This document shows, in pieces, positions 3,266-14,988 of a stretch of DNA of 14,988 bases; the first letter of the stretch is position 1, and each line of letters starts with the position of its first letter. The DNA lies in NCBI GenBank assembly GCA_028700905.1, contig JAQVRT010000011.1, positions 1 to 14,988 on the forward strand, read 5' to 3'. Made by a program: the position numbers and the translations under genes. This stretch comes from Candidatus Iainarchaeum sp. GTDB taxonomy: Archaea > Iainarchaeota > Iainarchaeia > Iainarchaeales > CSSED10-239. The notes beneath the pieces are model-generated. The model was given only the letters and a program-made list of their open reading frames with translations. It was not told the DNA's origin and ran no database searches.

Positions 3266-4015
3266 ATGTCTTTTAAGATGATTGAAAAAAGAAAAGTTGA
3301 AGGTTATGTGTTTGATAATAGAACACATGAAGCTATTTTTAAACTTTCAAAGAACGGTATAATGGATACTATAGATTCTCCAATATCAAGTGGAAAAGAA
3401 GCTATAACTTTTCTTGGTTATCTAAATGATACTCCTCTTGCTTTAAAGATATATAAAGTAGAAACTTCTGATTTTAAAAACATGGATAAATACATTATTG
3501 GAGATCACAGATTTAAAAGAATCTCTAAAGATAAAAGAGAGTTATTTTTAATCTGGGCTTCAAAAGAATATAAAAATCTAACTTTGGCTTTAAGAAATAA
3601 TGTTAAGGTTCCAATTGTTATTGCAAAAGAAAAAAATATAATTGTTATGTCTTTTTTAGGTTCAAAAGACGGTATTCCTTTTCCTAAACTTTCAGAGGTG
3701 AAATTTTCTTTTGATGTGGTATATCCACAGATAATTGAAAACTATGCAAAAATGTTATATGGTGCAAAGATTGTTCATGCAGATTTTTCTGCATTTAATA
3801 TTTTAATAAATCCAGAAACAGAAGAAATTACAATTATTGATATGGGTCAAGCTGTAGTTTATAGTCATCCTTTATCTAAAGATTTTTTAAAAAGAGATAT
3901 AATTTCTATTACTGATTTTTTAAATAAAAAATTTAAAAATAAAAATATTACTTATGAATCTTTTTTAGAAGATTTAAAAATTAAAAAAGAAGAGCTTTAT
4001 GGAAGAAATAATTAG
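3266..4015 (+). CDS. rio1: RIO-type serine/threonine protein kinase (Rio1-like, no N-terminal wHTH)
   Basis: Residues follow the RIO kinase consensus order: 'ISSGKEAITF', 'ALKIYK', 'EYKNL', catalytic/metal loop 'VHADFSAFNILI' and 'IIDMGQAV'. It lies between aIF1A and a KH protein, as in many archaea. Confidence 0.85.
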   Translation: MSFKMIEKRKVEGYVFDNRTHEAIFKLSKNGIMDTIDSPISSGKEAITFLGYLNDTPLALKIYKVETSDFKNMDKYIIGDHRFKRISKDKRELFLIWASKEYKNLTLALRNNVKVPIVIAKEKNIIVMSFLGSKDGIPFPKLSEVKFSFDVVYPQIIENYAKMLYGAKIVHADFSAFNILINPETEEITIIDMGQAVVYSHPLSKDFLKRDIISITDFLNKKFKNKNITYESFLEDLKIKKEELYGRNN

Positions 4016-6514: not shown

Positions 6515-6543
6515 TTGTTCTCTTTAAAAAAAACAATCATTTT
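6508..6543. terminator. Hairpin between the convergent HEPN remnant and the AsnB-Dph6 gene (candidate bidirectional terminator)
   Basis: Arms AAAATGATTGTT (6508-6519) and AACAATCATTTT (6532-6543) form a 12-bp perfect stem with a 12-nt loop. A-rich and T-rich runs flank it. The stop codons of both convergent reading frames lie inside the stem arms (TGA 6512-6514 on plus; TCA 6537-6539, read as TGA, on minus). Confidence 0.5.
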
Positions 6544-8645
6544 TCTTCTAAACCTAATTTTAAAATATCTAAATAACCAGTAATCTCATTTTCCATAATT
6601 GGGTTTGCACTTGTGATTACTATTTTTTGTTTATAAAGTGGAGCATCAAGAACAATACTTTCATATTCTCCTCCTTCTCCTGCAACATTAATGCCTTTCT
6701 TTTTATTAATTATCTTTAAGTTAATGACGTCTTCTTTAGTTAAAACTTTTCCAAGCCAATTTTCTGAAAGTCCTTGTCCTGCAATCTTTACAATCATTAC
6801 TTTGAAATTATCATCAATAAGTTCTTTTAAAACACCTTCTTGTGTTTTGTTCCAAAGAGGAGAAAACATTCTTAAACCAAGTTCATTACAAACATCTTGT
6901 ATTCTTTCTCTTTGATAATTACTTTTTATAGCTCCAGTAATTATTCCTTGAAGAGAATATTTTTCTTTTGCTTTAAAGAGTAATCTTTTAAGGTCTTTAA
7001 GTTCTTCTTCTTTAATTCCTTTTGTTTTTTGAAAAACAAAAGGCACTTCTAATGCTTGAGACTGAAGAGAAAGTATTTTTTCATCAATTTTTTGAAACAT
7101 ATAAGAATCTGGGTTTTCAGTGACCATTGTCATTAAGCATGCAATCTTATAATTTTGTCTTGCCATAATGTGATATGCAAGGTTTGAATCTTTTCCACCT
7201 GAGAAAAGACATCCTAAAGTAAGGTTTTCTTTTTTTGAAAGTTTTTTTAAAAATTCACCTTTTTGTTTAACATTATTTTCTTTTGCTATTTTTTCAATCA
7301 TTTTATCAAATCCACTTCCGTATTGTGCTGCTGTTTTTTTCCTCTTGTAATCTTCTTTTAAAAGACCAATTTCTTTTCCAATCTCTCTTAAGATTACTTT
7401 ATTTTCTTCATTATTAATTTTTTGTTTGTCTGTAAGATTAAAAGATTCTTCAATAACTTCTTTATCAAGATATGGAAATCTTGCTTCTATGTTATTATTT
7501 GTACAAACCACATCTTCTCTATAAAGATCATTTTCATGCATTTGGTATAAAAGGTTTAAAGTATCTTTTAAAAGATTTGTTGATTCTTTAAATCTTGAAT
7601 ATCCTGCAAATATTTCATCAGAACCTAGTCCTGAAAGAATAACTTTACAACCATCTTTTCTTGCTTTTTTTGAAGCAAAGTATATAGGTAAGGACACACC
7701 AATTTTTATAGGGTTTGATGACTCTACTCTCTCTATAAGTAAAGGTAATGTTTTTTCAATTTCTGTTTTAGAAATTTTTATTTTTTCAATAGAAAAACCA
7801 TATTCTTTTTCTGTTCTTAAAACATTTGAAAGATCTTTAGGGTTTAAAACATCTTGAGAATATGCAAAATACCCTTTAAAAGGAATTTTATTATCTTTTA
7901 ATATTTTTGCAATAACTAAAGAATCTATTCCTGAACTATATAAAAGAGCAATTTTTTGTTTTCCAGAAGCTCTTTTTAAAATTGCATTTTTTAGTTTTTC
8001 ATATACTTTCTCTTTTGTTGTTTTTCTATTTTCTATTTTAAAGAATGGTATTTGTTTAAAACTAATTTTATTTTTTAAAACATTATAAGAAAGTTCTTTT
8101 CTAGGATCTAGAAATTCAATTTTTTTAAAACCTGCATTTTCTAAAACTTTTTTTTCTGAAGCAAACCCAAATGATTTTTCTTCTATTGAATACCATAAAG
8201 GCTTTATCCCTAATATATCTCTTCTTAAATAAATTTCTCTACCATCATAATAACATATAGCATAAGGTCCATTAATTTCAGTAAATATTTTTTTTCCAAT
8301 CTTTATTATTGCTTTAAGTAAAAAATCAGAATCATTTTTTGAATCTATTTTGTATTTAGAAGAAAGTTCTTTGTAATTATATATTTCACAATTAGATAAA
8401 AGTACTTTTTTATCAATAATAATAGGTTGTGAAACATTTCCTGTTATAGAAAGTAAGTTGTGTCCAAAAACCACATCGTCAGGGATGTTTTTATGTTCTA
8501 TTTCTTTAATCTCTTTAAAATAACTACACTTATCATTACAAAAAACTCCATATCCATCAAGACCTCTTTTTTCTAAAGTTTTAAAAGCAGAGATTATTTC
8601 TTTTTTAGTTTCTTTAAGGTTTACAAAACCAATTATTGAGCACAT
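6537..8645 (-). CDS. Fusion protein: class-II (Ntn) glutamine amidotransferase + asparagine-synthetase-B-like PP-loop synthetase + Dph6/MJ0570-type diphthine-ammonia ligase (DUF71, Diphthami_syn_2) domain
   Basis: aa 1-~445 (nt ~7311-8645): 'MCSIIGF' (Cys2 nucleophile), 'NCEIYNYKEL', 'NGPYAICYYDGREIYLRRDILGIKPLWY', PP-loop 'LLYSSGIDS', 'ILSGLGSDEIFAGY', 'REDVVCTNNNIEARFPYLD'. aa ~474-702 (nt 6540-~7226): 'GCLFSGGKDSNLA', 'YMFQ', 'GIITGAIKSNYQRERIQDVCNELGLRMFSPLWNK', 'GINVAGEGGEYESIVLDAPLY', matching the MJ0570/Dph6 ATP pyrophosphatase family end to end. It is a single uninterrupted ORF with a K/E-rich linker at aa ~446-473. Confidence 0.8.
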   Translation of the reverse strand: MCSIIGFVNLKETKKEIISAFKTLEKRGLDGYGVFCNDKCSYFKEIKEIEHKNIPDDVVFGHNLLSITGNVSQPIIIDKKVLLSNCEIYNYKELSSKYKIDSKNDSDFLLKAIIKIGKKIFTEINGPYAICYYDGREIYLRRDILGIKPLWYSIEEKSFGFASEKKVLENAGFKKIEFLDPRKELSYNVLKNKISFKQIPFFKIENRKTTKEKVYEKLKNAILKRASGKQKIALLYSSGIDSLVIAKILKDNKIPFKGYFAYSQDVLNPKDLSNVLRTEKEYGFSIEKIKISKTEIEKTLPLLIERVESSNPIKIGVSLPIYFASKKARKDGCKVILSGLGSDEIFAGYSRFKESTNLLKDTLNLLYQMHENDLYREDVVCTNNNIEARFPYLDKEVIEESFNLTDKQKINNEENKVILREIGKEIGLLKEDYKRKKTAAQYGSGFDKMIEKIAKENNVKQKGEFLKKLSKKENLTLGCLFSGGKDSNLAYHIMARQNYKIACLMTMVTENPDSYMFQKIDEKILSLQSQALEVPFVFQKTKGIKEEELKDLKRLLFKAKEKYSLQGIITGAIKSNYQRERIQDVCNELGLRMFSPLWNKTQEGVLKELIDDNFKVMIVKIAGQGLSENWLGKVLTKEDVINLKIINKKKGINVAGEGGEYESIVLDAPLYKQKIVITSANPIMENEITGYLDILKLGLEEK

Positions 8646-8671
8646 AGTTTTTTTGTAATTTAAAGGTTAGG

Positions 8672-8677
8672 TATAAA
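8672..8677 (-). promoter_or_regulatory. Candidate TATA box (TTTATA on the minus strand) for the AsnB-Dph6 gene
   Basis: TATAAA at 8672-8677 reads TTTATA on the coding strand, 27-32 nt upstream of the start codon at 8645. This is consistent with a leaderless mRNA. Confidence 0.3.
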
Positions 8678-8771
8678 TACTTATTGATACAAATATTCTT
8701 TAATACTTTTTATTTTGAAAAGTTTAGAAAGATTTAAGATAACCTTTTTAAATCTTTTTAAGTATATTATA

Positions 8772-8780
8772 TATATAAAT
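8772..8780 (+). promoter_or_regulatory. Candidate TATA box (TATATAAAT) for top6B-top6A
   Basis: It lies 19-27 nt upstream of the ATG at 8799, in the divergent intergenic region shared with the AsnB-Dph6 gene. Confidence 0.3.
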
Positions 8781-8798
8781 ATATTTTAGTGATACTTT

Positions 8799-10526
8799 AT
8801 GAGTAATGAAAAAACAACAAAACAAGAAACTCAAGTTTCAAAAGATGGAATAGATGCTAATGTTTTATTCTCTGAATTTAAAGAACATTCAGTTGCTGAC
8901 TTTTTTAAAAAAAACAGACAAATGTTAGGACTTTATGGAAAACAAAGAACTTTAACAACAATTATTCACGAACTTGTTACAAATTCTTTAGATGCTTGTG
9001 AAGAAGCAGGTATCTTACCTGAGATTGAAGTTAAGATTTCAGAGATTGGAGAAGAATACTATGAAATATCTGTAATGGATAATGGTCCTGGTATTCCAGA
9101 AAACAAAATTGGTTCTGCTTTAGGAAAACTTCTTGCTGGAACTAAATTTCATAGGTTAGTTCAGACAAGAGGACAACAAGGAATTGGTGTTTCAGGAATT
9201 ATTTTATTTTCTCAAATTACAACTGGAAAACCAACAAAAGTTATTTCTGGAACTTCAAAGGAAAGAGCTGTTTCTTTAGAAATAACAATTGATTCAAAAA
9301 CTAATTCTCCAAAAATGACAAATAAAGTATATTTAGAAAAAAAATTTAGAGGTACTGGAATAAAAGCTAAATTTAAAGAAATCCAGTATAAGAAAGGACA
9401 AGGTTCTGTTGATGAATATTTAAGAAGAACTGCTATTGCAAATCCTCATGCAACTATAGTTTTCCAAGATCCTTTCCAAGAAGTTACAAAATATGAAAGA
9501 ATAGTTAAAACTTTACCAAAGATACCAAAACAAGTAAAACCTCACCCTAGAGGAGTTACTGTTGATGAATTATTATCTCTTGCAAGATATACTTCTGCAA
9601 GAAAAATATCTTCTTATCTTATGTTAACTTTTGATAGATTTGGTCAAACTGCAGTTGATTCAATTGCAAAAATGATTCATTTTGATATTAATAAAGATCC
9701 AAGAAAAATAACTTGGGAAGAAGCAGAAGAAATTGTTTCTGCTATCAAGAAAACTAAATTTATTGCACCAAATACAAATAACTTAGTTCCAATTGGTGAA
9801 AATTTTATTGAAAAGTCTTTACAAACAATTGTTGAGCCTGAATTTTGCTTTGTGTATACAAGAAAGCCTTCTGTTTACAAAGGAGGATATGCTTTCCAAG
9901 TTGAAGTTGCTGTTGCTTTTGGAGGTAATGCAGGACGTCTTGTAAGTGTTTCTTCTCCTAAGGCAAAAAACAGAAAAGATTCTCTTGATGATCAAGAAGA
10001 TACTAAAGAAGTTAGAGTTTCTGAAATAATAAGATATGCAAATAAATCTCCTCTTTTATTTGATGCAGGAGGTTGTGCAATTACAAAAACTGTTCAATCT
10101 ATTGATTGGAAAAGATATGGAATTCATAATTTTGAATCTGCTCCAGTAACTGTTTTTGTAAATTTAATTTCTGTGCATATCCCTTACACTTCAGCTGGTA
10201 AATCTGCAATTGCTGATGAAGAAGAAATTTTAGTTGAAACAAAGCTTGCTTTAATGGATGTTTCAAGAAGACTTGGAAGATATATTATTGATAAAAAGAA
10301 AGAAGCTGAAAAATTAGAAAAAAGAAAAGTCTTTGCAAAATATGCTCCTGAAATTGTTCAAGCCCTTTCAAGAATAACAGGTGCTGATGCTACTAAACTT
10401 CAAAAGAATTTAGATAAAATGGTTCTTGAAAAATTAAAAATGGAAGATTTAGAAGATCAAAAGCAAAAAGCAAAAGATGACAAGATAGAAGAAGAAATTG
10501 AAGAAGAAGAAGAAATTGAAGAATGA
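8799..10526 (+). CDS. top6B: DNA topoisomerase VI subunit B (GHKL ATPase)
   Basis: 'SVADFFKKNRQMLGL', Bergerat-fold motifs 'ELVTNSLDA', 'DNGPGIP', 'GQQGIGVSG', and the transducer region. It has an acidic low-complexity C-terminal tail (EEEIEEEEEIEE) and is followed directly by top6A. Confidence 0.95.
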   Translation: MSNEKTTKQETQVSKDGIDANVLFSEFKEHSVADFFKKNRQMLGLYGKQRTLTTIIHELVTNSLDACEEAGILPEIEVKISEIGEEYYEISVMDNGPGIPENKIGSALGKLLAGTKFHRLVQTRGQQGIGVSGIILFSQITTGKPTKVISGTSKERAVSLEITIDSKTNSPKMTNKVYLEKKFRGTGIKAKFKEIQYKKGQGSVDEYLRRTAIANPHATIVFQDPFQEVTKYERIVKTLPKIPKQVKPHPRGVTVDELLSLARYTSARKISSYLMLTFDRFGQTAVDSIAKMIHFDINKDPRKITWEEAEEIVSAIKKTKFIAPNTNNLVPIGENFIEKSLQTIVEPEFCFVYTRKPSVYKGGYAFQVEVAVAFGGNAGRLVSVSSPKAKNRKDSLDDQEDTKEVRVSEIIRYANKSPLLFDAGGCAITKTVQSIDWKRYGIHNFESAPVTVFVNLISVHIPYTSAGKSAIADEEEILVETKLALMDVSRRLGRYIIDKKKEAEKLEKRKVFAKYAPEIVQALSRITGADATKLQKNLDKMVLEKLKMEDLEDQKQKAKDDKIEEEIEEEEEIEE

Positions 10527-10571
10527 TTCTTTTTTTAAAAAAATAAAACTTTATAAAAATGTGATTAAGAT

Positions 10572-11711
10572 ATGGCAAACCAAAAACCAAAAAAACAAGA
10601 ACTTGAAAAGCACGAAGTTGAGGGTGCAAAAGAAATCGGTAAAAGAGTGTATGAAATTGCAGAAAATATTGTTCATCAAATAGAACATGAACATACTCCA
10701 ACTTTTTCAACAAAGGTAAGAGGACTTTCAAATGTTTATTTTGATCAAGATAAAGGTTTTATACAACTTGGAGATAAAACTGTTACAAGGCCTTTCTTAA
10801 ATCTTGGTGCTGCAAGAAAATTTATGCAAACTGTTTTAGTCACAGAAAAATGTAATGAATATTTAAAACATTCAAAAACAGCATCAATCAGAGAAATTTA
10901 TTATGAGCTTAAGCACACTGTTGCAAAAACTAATGAAAATACTTTTGATGGTCAAGAAGAATCTAATGATGTAATTGTTGATATTGAACATTCTGTTTCA
11001 ACAATTAGAGAAAAATTAGGACTTCAAGCTGATCCTAAAGGTTCACTTTATGGTGACATTACTTTAATTGATAGAAAACACAACAATGATGAGTTTAGTT
11101 GTAAAAACCTTGGAAGAGGTGGATGGTCTATCATGTCCAGAATTGAGCCTGATGAAATTGAAATTAAAGAAGTTAATGCTGATTTTGTTTTAGTTGTAGA
11201 GACATCTGCGATGTATGGTAGATTAATTGAAGAAAATTATCCTAAAAAACATAACGCTATATTAATTGGAACTTCAGGTCAAGCAGCAAGAGGTGCAAGA
11301 AGACTTGTTCACCGTTTAAGATATGAGTTTAATCTTCCAATTGTTGTTTTCACTGATGGGGATCCTTATGGTTGGTATATTTATTCTGTAATTAAGAGTG
11401 GTTCTATGGCTCTTGCAGCTCACTCTAAGTTTTTAGCAGTTCCTGATGCAAAGTATGTTGGTATGACTTTAACAGATGTTGAAGAATACGGTCTTCAAGC
11501 AGTAACTGAAAAAATGAAAGATGGGGATGTTAAGAGAGCAAAAGAGCTTATGTCTTATGATTGGTTTAAATCTCCTGCTTGGCAAAAAGAACTAAAGCTT
11601 GCAATTGATAAAAAGATCAGAATAGAGCAGCAGGCTCTTGCAAACAAATCTTTAGATTTTGTTGCTAAAAAGTATTTGCCAGAAAAAATAGATAATGAGA
11701 TTTTCTTATAG
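10572..11711 (+). CDS. top6A: DNA topoisomerase VI subunit A (Spo11 family)
   Basis: The catalytic-Tyr segment is 'ASIREIYYELKH'. Toprim acidic residues are in 'VLVVETSAMY' and 'VVFTDGDPYGWYIY'. Length of 379 aa is typical. Confidence 0.95.
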   Translation: MANQKPKKQELEKHEVEGAKEIGKRVYEIAENIVHQIEHEHTPTFSTKVRGLSNVYFDQDKGFIQLGDKTVTRPFLNLGAARKFMQTVLVTEKCNEYLKHSKTASIREIYYELKHTVAKTNENTFDGQEESNDVIVDIEHSVSTIREKLGLQADPKGSLYGDITLIDRKHNNDEFSCKNLGRGGWSIMSRIEPDEIEIKEVNADFVLVVETSAMYGRLIEENYPKKHNAILIGTSGQAARGARRLVHRLRYEFNLPIVVFTDGDPYGWYIYSVIKSGSMALAAHSKFLAVPDAKYVGMTLTDVEEYGLQAVTEKMKDGDVKRAKELMSYDWFKSPAWQKELKLAIDKKIRIEQQALANKSLDFVAKKYLPEKIDNEIFL

Positions 11712-11733
11712 ATTTTTTTAAAAAAGAAAAAAA

Positions 11734-12326
11734 ATGATTATGGATAGAGATTTGCTTAAAAGAGCTTTATTTATTTTAAGTGTTTCTTCCATTGTTACTT
11801 TTTCTACTCTTAAGATTGATCAAAATAAAAAAAGAGAAACTGTAAAAAAATATCTCTTTGAAAACCAAGCTAATTTTTTAACAAAAAATATCAATTAACA
11901 AAAGAAGATAGTGCTTTTGTTGTTAAAGAAATTTCATCTATTTTAAAAAATCCAGATGTTTTATTTAATGCTAAAAGTTTTATTGAGCATATTGATTATT
12001 ATAGAGCAGGAACTTTAACTAAAAAATCATGTTATCCTGCTTTTAATAGATTTTATGAAGCTTTTACAAATTCTTTGTCAAACCAGAAATTAGATTCTCT
12101 TTATCCTGTTTTAGAAAAATATTCTGCTTTTAAAAACTTAGAAAAAAATAAAAAAGCATCAAATATTGTTTTTAAAAGTAAATTTAGAGATTATTTTTTT
12201 GAAAAATATATAGAAGTTAAAAAACCTAAACCTAAATTAAATCCTTTTAATACAAAAAGTCCTAAAAATTATTTTACAAAAGAAGTTTCTAAAAAGAAAC
12301 CTATTGTTAGAAAAAAGATAATTTAA
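11734..12326 (+). pseudogene. Membrane-anchored, lysine-rich hypothetical protein gene split by a -1/+2 frame break at an A6 run (frameshifted gene, or a homopolymer sequencing error)
   Basis: The frame-1 ORF 11734-11898 (MIMDRDLLKRALFILSVSSIVTFSTL...FLTKNIN*) has an N-terminal TM/signal anchor. Frame 0 is open from 11874 to 12326 (..KKYQLTKEDSAFVVKEISSILKNPDVLFNAKSFIEHIDYYRAG...KKPIVRKKII*). One extra A in the run at 11883-11888 joins them into a ~197-aa ORF. The ORF track only reports the TTG-initiated tail at 12075-12326. Confidence 0.5.
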
Positions 12327-12361
12327 AAACATATAAATATCTTTTCATCTACTCTTTTATC

Positions 12362-12372
12362 TATATATAAAA
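12362..12372 (+). promoter_or_regulatory. Candidate TATA box (TATATATAAAA) for acs
   Basis: It ends 18 nt upstream of the ATG at 12391. No SD-like motif lies in between, so the transcript is possibly leaderless. Confidence 0.3.
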
Positions 12373-12390
12373 TGAAAAATAAGATTATTT

Positions 12391-14325
12391 ATGAGTGATG
12401 AAAAAAAATATTACCCTTCAAAAGATTTTCAAGAAAAAGCATATATTAAATCAATGGAAGAATATCAAAAGATATATGATGCTTCTATAAAAGATCCAGA
12501 AAGCTTCTGGGCAGATGCTGCAAAAGACATAGTGTGGTTTAAACCATATTCTTCTGTCTTTCAGTGGGAAGATAAAGAAAAATATCTTTACTCTTGGTTT
12601 AAGAACGGAAAATTAAATGTTTCTTACAACTGCTTAGATAGACATTTAGAAAAAAATGCAGACAAAATAGCTTTAATCTTTCAAGGGGAAGAAGAAAGTA
12701 ATGTAAAAAAATACACTTACAGAGAGCTGCACTTAGAAGTTTCAAGATTTGCAAATGTTTTAAAGAAGCATGGTATAAAGAAAGGAGATAGAGTTTCTAT
12801 CTATATGCCAATGATACCTGAATTTCTAATTTCTCTTTTAGCATGTGCAAGAATAGGTGCAATTCATTCTGTTGTTTTTGCAGGATACAGCACACAAACA
12901 ACAAAAGAAAGAATTGAGTTTGCAAAATCAAAAATGCTTATAACAGCTGATGGTTCTCTAAGAGCTGGAAAGAAAATAAACTTTAAGGAAGAAGTTGATA
13001 AAGCAATTACTGATATAAATGATATTGAAAGTATATTAATTGTTAGAAATATAGATATTCCTTTAACTTTAAAAGAAAATGAGTATATTTATCAAGAAGA
13101 AATTAAAGCTCCAGATATCTTGGACACTTGCGCGCCAGAGGAAATGGATTCTGAAGATCCTTTATTTATTTTATTTAATTCAGGAACTGTTGAAAAACCA
13201 AAAGGTACACTTCACACAAATGCTGGTTATTTGGTATACACAAAGGAGACTTTTAAATATATTTTTAATTATCATAAAGATGATGTTTATTGGTGTACAG
13301 CAGACATAGGCTGGATTACAGGGCACTCATACTTAGTTTATGGTCCTCTTGCAAATGCTGCAACAGTTTTAATGTATGAAGGAATTCCAACCTTTCCAGA
13401 TAATGAAACATACTGGAGAATTATTGAAAAACATAAAGTAAATATTTTTTATACAGCTCCAACAGTTATAAGATCTTTAATGAGATATGGAACTGATCCG
13501 GTAGAAAAACATGATCTTTCATCCTTAAAACTTTTAGGGTCAGTTGGTGAGCCTATAAATCCTGAAGCATGGGTTTGGTATTATGAAAACATTGGTAAAA
13601 GTAATTGTCCAATAGTTGATACTTGGTGGCAAACAGAGTCTGGTGGATTTTTAATAGCACCATTTCCAGGAGCCTTTCCTCTAAAACCAGGCTTTGCAAC
13701 AAAACCTTTTTTTGGTATTGATGCTGATGTCTTAAGAGAGGATGGTTCTAAAGCTGATGTTAATGAACCAGGTTCTGTGGTTATTAAAAAACCATGGCCA
13801 GGAATGATGAGAACAATTTATGGAGAACATCAAAAATATTTAGACATCTATATTTCAAAATATCCTGGTTATTATTTCTGTGGAGATAGAGGAAAAATAG
13901 ATGAAGATGGTTATTTTTTCATAATTGGAAGAATGGATGATGTGATTAAAGTTTCAGGACATCGTTTAGGTTCTGCAGAAGTTGAATCTGCTTTAGTTTC
14001 AAATAAAAATGTTGGTGAAGCAGCAGTTGTTCCTTTCCCTCATGAAATAAAAGGACAAGCTCTTTATGCTTTTATTATTTTAAGAGCAGGAATAAAACCT
14101 TCTGATGATTTAGTAAAAGAATTAAGAGAGCATGTTGCAAAGGAAATAGGTCCAATTGCAAAACCTGATAAAATACAGTTTGTAGAAGCTCTTCCAAAGA
14201 CAAGTAGTGGTAAGATCATAAGAAGGATCTTAAGAGCAATTGCTTATGACTCTGAAGATTATGGAGACCTTTCAACACTTTACAATCCAGAGGTTATTGA
14301 AAAAATTAAATCTAAAAAGATTTAA
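12391..14325 (+). CDS. acs: Acetyl-CoA synthetase (AMP-forming, acetate-CoA ligase)
   Basis: Full-length 644-aa match to the Acs consensus: 'FWADAAKDI.WFKP', 'WFKNGKLNVSYNCLDRHL', 'YTYRELHLEVSRFANVLKKHGIKKGDRVSIYMPMIPE', 'YWCTADIGWITGHSY', 'DTWWQTESGG', 'DEDGYFFIIGRMDDVIKVSGHRLGSAEVESAL', 'LPKTSSGKIIRRILR'. Confidence 0.95.
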   Translation: MSDEKKYYPSKDFQEKAYIKSMEEYQKIYDASIKDPESFWADAAKDIVWFKPYSSVFQWEDKEKYLYSWFKNGKLNVSYNCLDRHLEKNADKIALIFQGEEESNVKKYTYRELHLEVSRFANVLKKHGIKKGDRVSIYMPMIPEFLISLLACARIGAIHSVVFAGYSTQTTKERIEFAKSKMLITADGSLRAGKKINFKEEVDKAITDINDIESILIVRNIDIPLTLKENEYIYQEEIKAPDILDTCAPEEMDSEDPLFILFNSGTVEKPKGTLHTNAGYLVYTKETFKYIFNYHKDDVYWCTADIGWITGHSYLVYGPLANAATVLMYEGIPTFPDNETYWRIIEKHKVNIFYTAPTVIRSLMRYGTDPVEKHDLSSLKLLGSVGEPINPEAWVWYYENIGKSNCPIVDTWWQTESGGFLIAPFPGAFPLKPGFATKPFFGIDADVLREDGSKADVNEPGSVVIKKPWPGMMRTIYGEHQKYLDIYISKYPGYYFCGDRGKIDEDGYFFIIGRMDDVIKVSGHRLGSAEVESALVSNKNVGEAAVVPFPHEIKGQALYAFIILRAGIKPSDDLVKELREHVAKEIGPIAKPDKIQFVEALPKTSSGKIIRRILRAIAYDSEDYGDLSTLYNPEVIEKIKSKKI

Positions 14326-14345
14326 TTCTTTTTTTAAAATGATTT

Positions 14346-14374
14346 ATAATAGTGGTTATAATAACCACCATTAT
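14346..14374. terminator. Hairpin between convergent acs and porB-like genes (candidate bidirectional terminator)
   Basis: ATAATAGTGGTTAT (14346-14359) and ATAACCACCATTAT (14361-14374) form an inverted repeat with one mismatch. The core GTGGTTAT/ATAACCAC is perfect. T-runs flank it on both sides (14329-14335 and 14376-14380). Confidence 0.45.
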
Positions 14375-14378
14375 ATTT

Positions 14379-14988
14379 TTATTTTAAAGGAAAAGCTTCT
14401 TCCATTTTTAGAAGTTCTTTAAAATCATCATCTATTTCTTGTTGTATCTTTTTAATTTCATTTTTATCTTTTAAAACTTCTTTAAACTTAGTTTGCATTT
14501 TTAAAAATTCTTCAATTGGTTTTTTGTTTGTAGGCTTATAGTTTATTTTATATTTTCCATCTTCAACTTCATAAAGTGGCCAAAAATTAGTTTCTGTTGC
14601 AAGCTTTGAAATATCAATTGTTAAGTCTTCAGGAGCCTTCATGTTTGTAGGGCATGCTGCATAAACAATGATTACAGCTGGTCCTTTCTTTTCAAAAGCT
14701 TTTCTAAACTTTTCATGCATATCTAAAAGATTTCCTGGGTTTGCAGTTGCAACATATGGTATTTTATGAGCAATAGCTATCTTTGCAAGATCTTTTTGAA
14801 ATTCTTTTTTCTCTCCTGGAGTTGTTGTTGTTTGTGCTCCATAAGGTGTTGCAGAGGATCTTTGTGCTCCTGTGTTATGAACAACAATTCCATCTGCAAT
14901 AAAGTTGTGTTCTCCATCAACTCTTAAATCTAATGTTTGTTCAATTCCTCTAGGGATAATATTTTTTATTTTTCTTGTTTCAAAATAT
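14379..14988 (-). CDS. porB: Pyruvate/2-oxoacid:ferredoxin oxidoreductase beta (TPP-binding) subunit, C-terminal extein, preceded by the C-terminal end of an intein; the 5' end lies outside the window
   Basis: The reading frame is open from 14987 down to the stop at 14379-14381; the ORF track shows only the Met-initiated tail. Extein (nt 14382-14873): 'TGAQRSSATPYGAQTTTTPGEKKEFQKDLAKIAIAHKIPYVATANPGNLLD MHEKFRKAFEKKGPAVIIVYAACPTN...WPLYEVEDGKYKINY...EEFLKMQTKFKEVL' matches the PorB-type beta subunit C-terminal half. The ferredoxin-oxidoreductase family is confident. Substrate specificity (por, vor or kor) is not. Confidence 0.8.
   Translation of the reverse strand, partial: YFETRKIKNIIPRGIEQTLDLRVDGEHNFIADGIVVHNTGAQRSSATPYGAQTTTTPGEKKEFQKDLAKIAIAHKIPYVATANPGNLLDMHEKFRKAFEKKGPAVIIVYAACPTNMKAPEDLTIDISKLATETNFWPLYEVEDGKYKINYKPTNKKPIEEFLKMQTKFKEVLKDKNEIKKIQQEIDDDFKELLKMEEAFPLK
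14874..14988 (-). mobile_element. Intein, C-terminal splicing region (blocks F/G), truncated by the window edge
   Basis: The minus-strand translation from the window edge is 'YFETRKIKNIIPRGIEQTLDLRVDGEHNFIADGIVVHN' and is immediately followed by Thr (+1) of 'TGAQRSS'. 'LDLRVDGEHNFIADGIVVHN' matches the canonical intein block F/G consensus (vyDLtVe..HNFvAnGilvHN + S/T/C). The terminal Asn codon is at 14874-14876 and the +1 Thr codon at 14871-14873. Confidence 0.7.

Follow-up and report, generated by a model that had tools for sequence, protein, structure and literature searches.

Inteins that interrupt metabolic enzymes are known from the phosphoenolpyruvate (PEP) synthase and GlmS/GF6P of Methanocaldococcus jannaschii, from mycobacterial SufB, and from a metagenomic IMPDH-1, where the intein is split. 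They are precedents for the interruption of conserved cofactor or substrate sites in central enzymes, and an intein in a central-metabolism enzyme is thus not unprecedented in kind. To our knowledge, none of them sits in a 2-oxoacid:ferredoxin oxidoreductase (OFOR) dependent on thiamine pyrophosphate (TPP). Here, we describe an element of this type at the right edge of a 14,988-bp stretch of DNA from Candidatus Iainarchaeum sp. (contig JAQVRT010000011.1), which we call the window and which is the entire contig. Its right edge cuts porB inside an intein; this gene encodes the TPP-binding beta subunit of a pyruvate (2-oxoacid):ferredoxin oxidoreductase (PFOR) with four subunits. We consider it very probable that this porB is interrupted by a canonical class-1 intein that is spliced out of the protein. 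The host is a DPANN archaeon of the Candidatus Forterrea/Iainarchaeota group.

The nearest solved splicing domains, judged by predicted fold, are the Ssp DnaB (1MI8) and Npu DnaB (4O1R) inteins, with template modeling (TM) scores of 0.88 to 0.89 at 27% to 28% identity, and the Ssp DnaB mini-intein also matches the PorB splicing domain in sequence (E = 2e-9). The PorB intein and the two DnaB inteins alike carry Cys1, a block B TxxH motif, blocks F and G of the form HNF.A.. ..VHN, and a +1 nucleophile. However, PorB is not a replicative helicase, its +1 residue is Thr instead of Ser, and its LAGLIDADG domain is of a different origin. For the endonuclease domain, residues 256 to 418 of PI-PkoII (the Pol-2 intein of Thermococcus kodakarensis, 2CW7) can be aligned (E = 4e-8). 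The PorB intein resembles PI-PkoII in having two LAGLIDADG motifs with acidic residues and in scoring over the LAGLIDADG_3 cutoff, whereas the overall similarity is low, the host gene is another one, the DNA target presumably differs, and the PorB endonuclease is a predicted one. Compared with the metabolic-enzyme inteins named above, the PorB allele is unusually widespread across both domains, among uncultured anaerobes.

In the window, the minus strand from 14987 to 14376 translates in a single open frame as YFETRKIKNIIPRGIEQTLDLRVDGEHNFIADGIVVHN/TGAQRSSATPYGAQTTTTPGEKKEF...EEAFPLK followed by a stop (a slash marks an extein–intein or extein–extein junction throughout), while the other two frames are rich in stops. 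The first 38 residues (14874–14987, minus strand) are the C-terminal end of the intein, ...TLDLRVDGEHNFIADGIVVHN, which comprises splicing blocks F and G, closes with His-Asn (...LDLRVDGEHNFIADGIVVHN), and terminates as ...EHNFIADGIVVHN. They are followed by Thr+1 (14871–14873), the predicted C-extein nucleophile for transesterification and the first residue of the PorB TG.QRS segment, and base 14988 belongs to the next upstream intein codon, which the contig end cuts so that the frame starts at 14987. The C-extein (14379–14873, minus strand) holds the C-terminal 164 residues of a PorB/VorB-type beta subunit, with its last codon ending at 14382 and the stop codon at 14379–14381. None of the 38 intein codons is ATG, GTG, or TTG, and no stop interrupts the frame up to the contig end; therefore, the open reading frame (ORF) must extend past it.

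Profile searches agree with this reading and show that the resemblance to an intein end is not due to chance. NCBIfam TIGR01443 (intein_Cterm) scores 28.3 bits on the 202-residue fragment and 31.9 bits on a 39-residue piece (E = 1e-7) against a curated cutoff of 15.6 bits. Pfam PF14890 (Intein_splicing) aligns at profile positions 122 to 155 of 155 (E = 2.9e-5), with a score under the whole-domain cutoff, as expected because the window holds only a fragment of the domain. Residues 39 to 202 fit the PorB/VorB models NF008818 (E = 7e-52) and NF008819 (E = 4e-48) from about profile position 133 through the last position, with a further match to PF02775 (E = 4.6e-7); since the VorB-like and PorB models score alike on the C-extein, pyruvate and 2-oxoisovalerate are both candidate substrates. 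The public annotation of the fragment (P0001) reads only “thiamine pyrophosphate-dependent enzyme, partial”. The initial annotation, made from the letters of the window, had proposed an intein C-terminal splicing motif inside a PorB-like subunit at 14871–14988. Both the motif, whose quoted translation is reproduced exactly, and this range, which spans the 38 intein codons, the Thr+1 codon, and one base of the cut codon, are borne out, and the TIGR01443 match supplies the profile signature of an intein.

The complete gene can be read in close relatives. A metagenome scan with a degenerate pattern for the extein peptide next to the junction returned one contig, L086 (Ga0334894_1002895), which shares 99.0% nucleotide identity with the window over 7651–12205 and 98.2% over 12318–14988. 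By this similarity, L086 is of the same species, and it runs beyond the right end of the window. Its porB is a single uninterrupted ORF of 677 residues (L086:8333–10366, minus strand), with porA upstream, and consists of a 141-residue N-extein, a 372-residue intein, and a 164-residue C-extein. The N-extein contains GDGG and ends in ...DNEGYQN; the intein opens with Cys1, has the block B sequence KATSNH (...IKATSNHPFL...), carries two LAGLIDADG motifs (LGLYVGDGW and GLLMSDGY), and ends in ...EHNFIADGIVVHN with a terminal HN/T. Thus, the N-terminal Hint block and the PorB N-extein, which the initial annotation had expected upstream of the fragment, are both found in a same-species contig. In the overlap, 200 of 202 residues of the window fragment are identical to L086.

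The same architecture, including Cys1 and the block B TxxH, is seen in Candidatus Forterrea multitransposorum, whose genome is complete (L018, CP045477.1; 95.4% nucleotide identity to window 12614–14988), and in an Iainarchaeum metagenome-assembled genome (MAG) (L016; 89.5% nucleotide identity), Forterrea being a member of Iainarchaeota, a DPANN phylum. In the L018 protein, Pfam reports Intein_splicing at 56.4 bits (cutoff 35.8) and LAGLIDADG_3 (PF14528) at 35 bits (cutoff 22.5), and the TPP_enzyme_C match is divided into two stretches. The 38 intein residues of the window are 100% identical to the C-termini of the complete 372-residue inteins in L016, L018, and L086. In its nearest relatives, the intein is therefore 372 residues long with a LAGLIDADG_3 domain, and these genomes indicate that the window's own copy would also be a 372-residue intein with a LAGLIDADG homing endonuclease. 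The operon order POR, Fer4, POR_N, porB is seen in four further loci (L001–L004).

Intein-free alleles show where the insertion lies. Two homologues, P0002 and P0003, read ...NEGYQN/TGAQRSSATP... with no gap or additional residue at the junction, and P0002 is 89% identical to the C-extein of the window. At the DNA level, the empty allele L087/P0002, with 85.8% nucleotide identity to the L086 exteins, has the intein-free site sequence ...GGATACCAAAAT/ACTGGTGCTCAACG... and reads ...TACCAAAAT/ACTGGTGCT... at the very position of the 1116-bp intein in L086. As the intein-free allele ...NEGYQN/TGAQRSS... exists in a relative, the junction is seamless. The solved PFOR and oxalate oxidoreductase (OOR) beta chains are likewise uninterrupted at this point, and the stretch DGIVVHN, which the initial annotation had allowed might be native to this PorB lineage, is accordingly not native PorB sequence. 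A separate observation concerns the junction DNA, which is AAC/ACAGGAGCACAACGATCC in the occupied allele and AAT/ACTGGTGCTCAACGTTCA in the empty one; the synonymous third positions in the 18 nt on each side mostly differ between L086/L018 and L087. These differences could stem from co-conversion or from loss of the endonuclease target, but the idea of a co-conversion or immunity signature was dropped, as a comparison of just two lineages (86% identity) does not suffice to judge it. A foreign origin of the intein found no support in base composition (25.7% GC in the intein, 32.8% in the exteins, and 26% in the whole contig).

The spliced protein was aligned to solved structures to place the insertion within the enzyme. 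The best matches are the beta subunit of oxalate oxidoreductase (5C4I_C, E = 1e-70) and of Methanosarcina acetivorans PFOR (9BT4_C, E = 1.5e-69), and Desulfovibrio africanus PFOR (DaPFOR, 1B0P) aligns too. In this alignment, the −1 Asn corresponds to DaPFOR Asn996 and Thr+1 to Thr997, and residue −6, the Asn of the DNE motif, corresponds to StOFOR Asn118b, which coordinates Mg2+ as part of the GDG...N TPP motif. Asn996 borders the pyruvate pocket and rotates when substrate binds; its counterpart in StOFOR1, Leu123b, influences substrate specificity, and Mg2+ is bound by GDG and Asn118b (Yan et al. 2016, PMC5020499). By alignment, then, the intein lies between the substrate-pocket Asn and the Thr of N-TG.QRS, five residues past the Mg2+-ligand position, in keeping with the TPP-binding loop to which it had been assigned from the window alone. 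A 372-residue insertion at this place would be expected to block cofactor and substrate binding up to its removal, TPP binding by the interrupted enzyme being implausible, so PFOR maturation would depend on splicing. PFOR is described as central to the minimal catabolism of Forterrea (PMC5905446).

How widely the element occurs was gauged by a scan in which each GTDB species was represented by one genome and two conserved intein peptides served as patterns. It gave 489 pattern matches, 268 of them at loci encoding a related intein; statements on site and taxon refer to the best 80 of these 268 loci. In all 80, the intein lies in PorB at the identical site (...N-x-x-Y-x-N/CLS...HN/TG.QRS). At a minimum, 80 species-level genomes thus carry the allele, and many of the 268 probably do. 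By record title, 41 of the 80 are bacterial and 39 archaeal, although the “uncultured X” labels of third-party assemblies may be unreliable in places. The bacterial carriers include Omnitrophota, Aerophobetes, Planctomycetia, Clostridia, Parcubacteria, Cloacimonadota, Dependentiae, and Actinomycetota, and the archaeal ones Iainarchaeota, Micrarchaeota, Woesearchaeota, Nanoarchaeota, Aenigmatarchaeota, Hadarchaeota, Bathyarchaeia, Heimdallarchaeota, and others. When the mini-intein alone served as query, a word-indexed protein search gave only nine matches; it is too insensitive for a census, and the pattern scan of genome contigs told far more. In a first-pass set of 72 inteins, 53 are full-length (326–372 residues, with LAGLIDADG) and 19 are mini-inteins (141–212 residues); LAGLIDADG motif 1 is found in 48 of the full-length inteins and motif 2 in 49. 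In 97% of archaeon–bacterium pairs, similarity is higher in the splicing blocks (mean 68%) than in 250 flanking extein residues (mean 51%). This comparison is biased, since loci were picked for the similarity of their inteins and it took in the conserved ends of the intein alone. This gap is compatible with horizontal spread by homing.

Several lines of evidence bear on whether the element is functional. Asn−1, the penultimate His, the terminal Asn, Thr+1, and the +2 Gly, +4 Gln, +5 Arg, and +6 Ser are present in 81/81 inteins at the site, and Cys1 and T65-x-N67-H68 in 80/81; as the extraction pattern demanded a Cys at position 1 and an HN end, only the counts for −1, +1, and block B are independent. 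An AlphaFold2 model was made of a mini-intein relative, P0006, as a stand-in for the window fragment. It is all-beta, with a mean predicted local distance difference test (pLDDT) score of 81, mostly 84 to 94 in the splicing-domain blocks, and a low-confidence internal loop at residues 111 to 121. In a Foldseek search, the top PDB matches of this model are inteins, 1MI8 (TM 0.89, root-mean-square deviation 2.4 Å) and 4O1R (TM 0.88), and its C-terminal half resembles PFOR and OOR beta subunits, including 9BT4_C. The relative P0006 is thus predicted to adopt a HINT fold. Within the Forterrea/Iainarchaeum clade, the ratio of nonsynonymous to synonymous substitution rates (dN/dS) is 0.05 to 0.06 in the splicing domain, 0.07 to 0.17 in the endonuclease, and 0.04 to 0.07 in the exteins, indicating purifying selection on the splicing domain as well as on the endonuclease domain.

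We therefore favor the following course of events, whose chemistry is that of a canonical intein. The 677-residue precursor would be translated first, Cys1 would undergo an N–S acyl shift, and Thr+1 would attack the resulting thioester by transesterification. The terminal Asn would then cyclize with help of the penultimate His, and the exteins would be ligated into a PorB of ~305 residues with its TPP and substrate pocket intact. The endonuclease would cut intein-free porB alleles, copying the element into them, and such homing would explain its spread over many anaerobic archaeal and bacterial lineages.

A few points weigh against this scenario. The window itself holds just 38 intein residues, and the N-terminal part is supplied by a separate assembly that is 98% to 99% identical, along which the window contig would be expected to continue. 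For every member of the PorB allele, splicing is a prediction from sequence, and the predicted endonuclease activity is drawn from motif conservation and dN/dS. The organism could also hold an intein-free copy of porB. Finally, a frameshifted intein ORF in a related contig, L003, may signal copies that are non-functional or split.

One alternative is that the element is a decayed, splicing-incompetent remnant, either in a porB pseudogene or as an insertion that is tolerated or removed by another route. The mini-inteins and the one frameshifted copy among relatives show that the element does decay, and the N-terminal catalytic part lies outside the window. However, all catalytic residues visible in the window are intact (the Asp and His of block F, the terminal HN, and Thr+1), the full copy in the same species has Cys1 and TxxH, and splicing domain and exteins have equal dN/dS. 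The insertion, moreover, lies in the TPP and substrate pocket of an enzyme described as the key catabolic one in the nearest described organism, and we regard decay as very unlikely.

Still less probable, in our view, is a naturally split, trans-splicing intein, in which the window would encode an IntC-PorB(C) gene and the N-terminal half of PorB fused to IntN would be encoded separately. This idea draws on L003, where the gene is called in two pieces and the second, P0128, has an IntC-like leader of 35 residues, the size seen in DnaE-type split inteins. However, the 38 intein codons of the window have no start codon in an open frame, and the ORFs of L086, L018, and L016 are continuous; a split intein in the window was rejected on these grounds, the uninterrupted ORF of the same species included. 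In L003, too, the second frame is open upstream of its Met, which points to a 1-nt frameshift rather than a designed boundary between genes. The locus itself (L003:2469–4483, JGI Ga0115371_10063850) is a PorB with a LAGLIDADG intein at the same site and a broken ORF: a 464-residue product, covering the N-extein and most of the intein, stops, and the 207-residue P0128 then starts with MKKIKSIKKKKMEPTLDLRVEGEHNFIANGIVVHN/TG.... The break is best explained by a 1-nt frameshift near 3770–3790, be it an error or the mark of a pseudogene, and a natural split intein at that locus is less likely. The remaining idea, a lineage-specific native PorB insertion or a Hint domain of the bacterial intein-like (BIL) or Hedgehog type that cleaves without ligation, has next to no chance of being correct: BIL and Hedgehog domains share the fold and are among the structural matches (6Y75, 1AT0, 2LWY), but the insertion is seamless against intein-free alleles, has an HN end and a +1 nucleophile, lies in a conserved enzyme core, carries a homing endonuclease, has true inteins (1MI8, 4O1R) as its top structural matches, and exceeds the cutoff of the intein-specific TIGR01443.

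Within the preferred reading of a splicing intein, a regulatory role can be considered. A second cysteine, Cys41 (for example, in ...LKECTGVF... of L018), is kept in 80/81 inteins at the site, and the aligned residue in Ssp DnaB is Val. Could the PorB intein be more than a selfish element and act as a conditional switch that, in response to redox state or oxygen, controls the splicing of a central, oxygen-sensitive catabolic enzyme in anaerobes with minimal metabolism? Joined by a disulfide, Cys1 and Cys41 would keep the precursor unspliced under oxidizing conditions, and if this were true, the benefit would account for retention of the intein and for its spread across domains. We consider such a switch unlikely and mention it as a speculation.

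With respect to novelty, our literature search, whose coverage did not extend to intein registries such as InBase, found no paper describing an intein in PorB, PFOR, or OFOR. The “intein-containing” exception models among the NCBIfam matches concern RtcB, GyrA, RecA, and DnaB, and none was seen for PorB. The suggestion that this may be a new insertion allele thus holds as far as the literature is concerned, but not for the databases, as the allele is plentiful in public MAGs and Pfam intein matches are already precomputed on those proteins. The PorB intein is an undescribed rather than an unseen host and insertion site of a well-known kind of element, and its mechanism holds no surprise. With it, the host range of inteins gains a TPP-dependent central-carbon enzyme, the PFOR/OFOR beta subunit. 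Because conservation is stronger in the splicing blocks than in PorB itself, the element is also a candidate marker of gene flow between archaea and bacteria that co-occur in the subsurface. A Thr+1 intein family with natural mini-variants of 141 to 212 residues may, in addition, become a tool for biotechnology.

PorB is also interrupted at other positions. One further site, GDGG/C...(~343 residues, LAGLIDADG_3)...N/SFDIG, lies right after the Mg2+-binding GDG (L001:4519–6990, the same locus as L006, and likewise in L013 and L078), and another, YV/CLPPETEI...(~550 residues)...FVISN/CYDNEAYMN, lies eight residues ahead of the main site (L051). Genes with two inteins occur, with ORFs of 823 to 1231 residues. 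At least three insertion sites are thus clustered in the TPP/Mg2+ motif, in line with the general preference of inteins for conserved cofactor sites.

The interruption has consequences for gene calling. Public porB calls often begin at the Met of ...YMN/C (P0006 at L001:6001, P0037 at L002:5818, P0045, P0048, and P0121), so that the call misses the N-extein (1465 nt in L001, 408 nt in L002), or are broken at the intein. Many fragments in the databases stop at a contig edge inside the intein, among them P0122, P0123, P0125, P0126, and the window at 14988. Due to such miscalled or cut genes, PorB is easily scored as partial or absent in metabolic reconstructions from MAGs. This matters for Forterrea-like organisms, in which PFOR is regarded as the key catabolic step, and for DPANN, candidate phyla radiation (CPR), and Omnitrophota genomes.

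Scans of the window for tRNA genes and Rfam families gave no matches. Elsewhere in the window, a hypothetical gene at 11736–12326 (plus strand) is frameshifted in a poly-A run near 11885–11895, where it reads ...FLTKNIN and a stop against ...FLTKKYQLTKED... in L086, in which the gene is intact (L086:4087–4683, 198 residues); either a true pseudogene or an error of sequencing or assembly could account for this. L086 also has an extra gene of 524 residues (L086:4706–6280) that is missing from the window (window 12205–12318 against L086:4559–6273), a strain-level presence/absence difference between contigs that are 98% to 99% identical. The product of this extra gene has a hydrophobic segment at its N-terminus, and its repeated CWG.N..GQLG motifs bring to mind repeats of the RCC1 type. 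At 6537–8645 (minus strand), the window encodes a 702-residue fusion of glutamine amidotransferase, asparagine synthase, and Dph6-like diphthamide-synthase (PF01902) domains, and the relative L001 carries the same fusion with 714 residues. Next to porB, the acs gene (12391–14325, plus strand) is convergent with it, and the two are separated by a 53-nt spacer. An imperfect AT-rich inverted repeat (ATAATGGTGGTTAT and ATAACCACTATTAT) lies in this spacer at ~14346–14374; it may form a bidirectional, terminator-like hairpin, and the counterpart of this region in L016 aligns with it in inverted orientation too.

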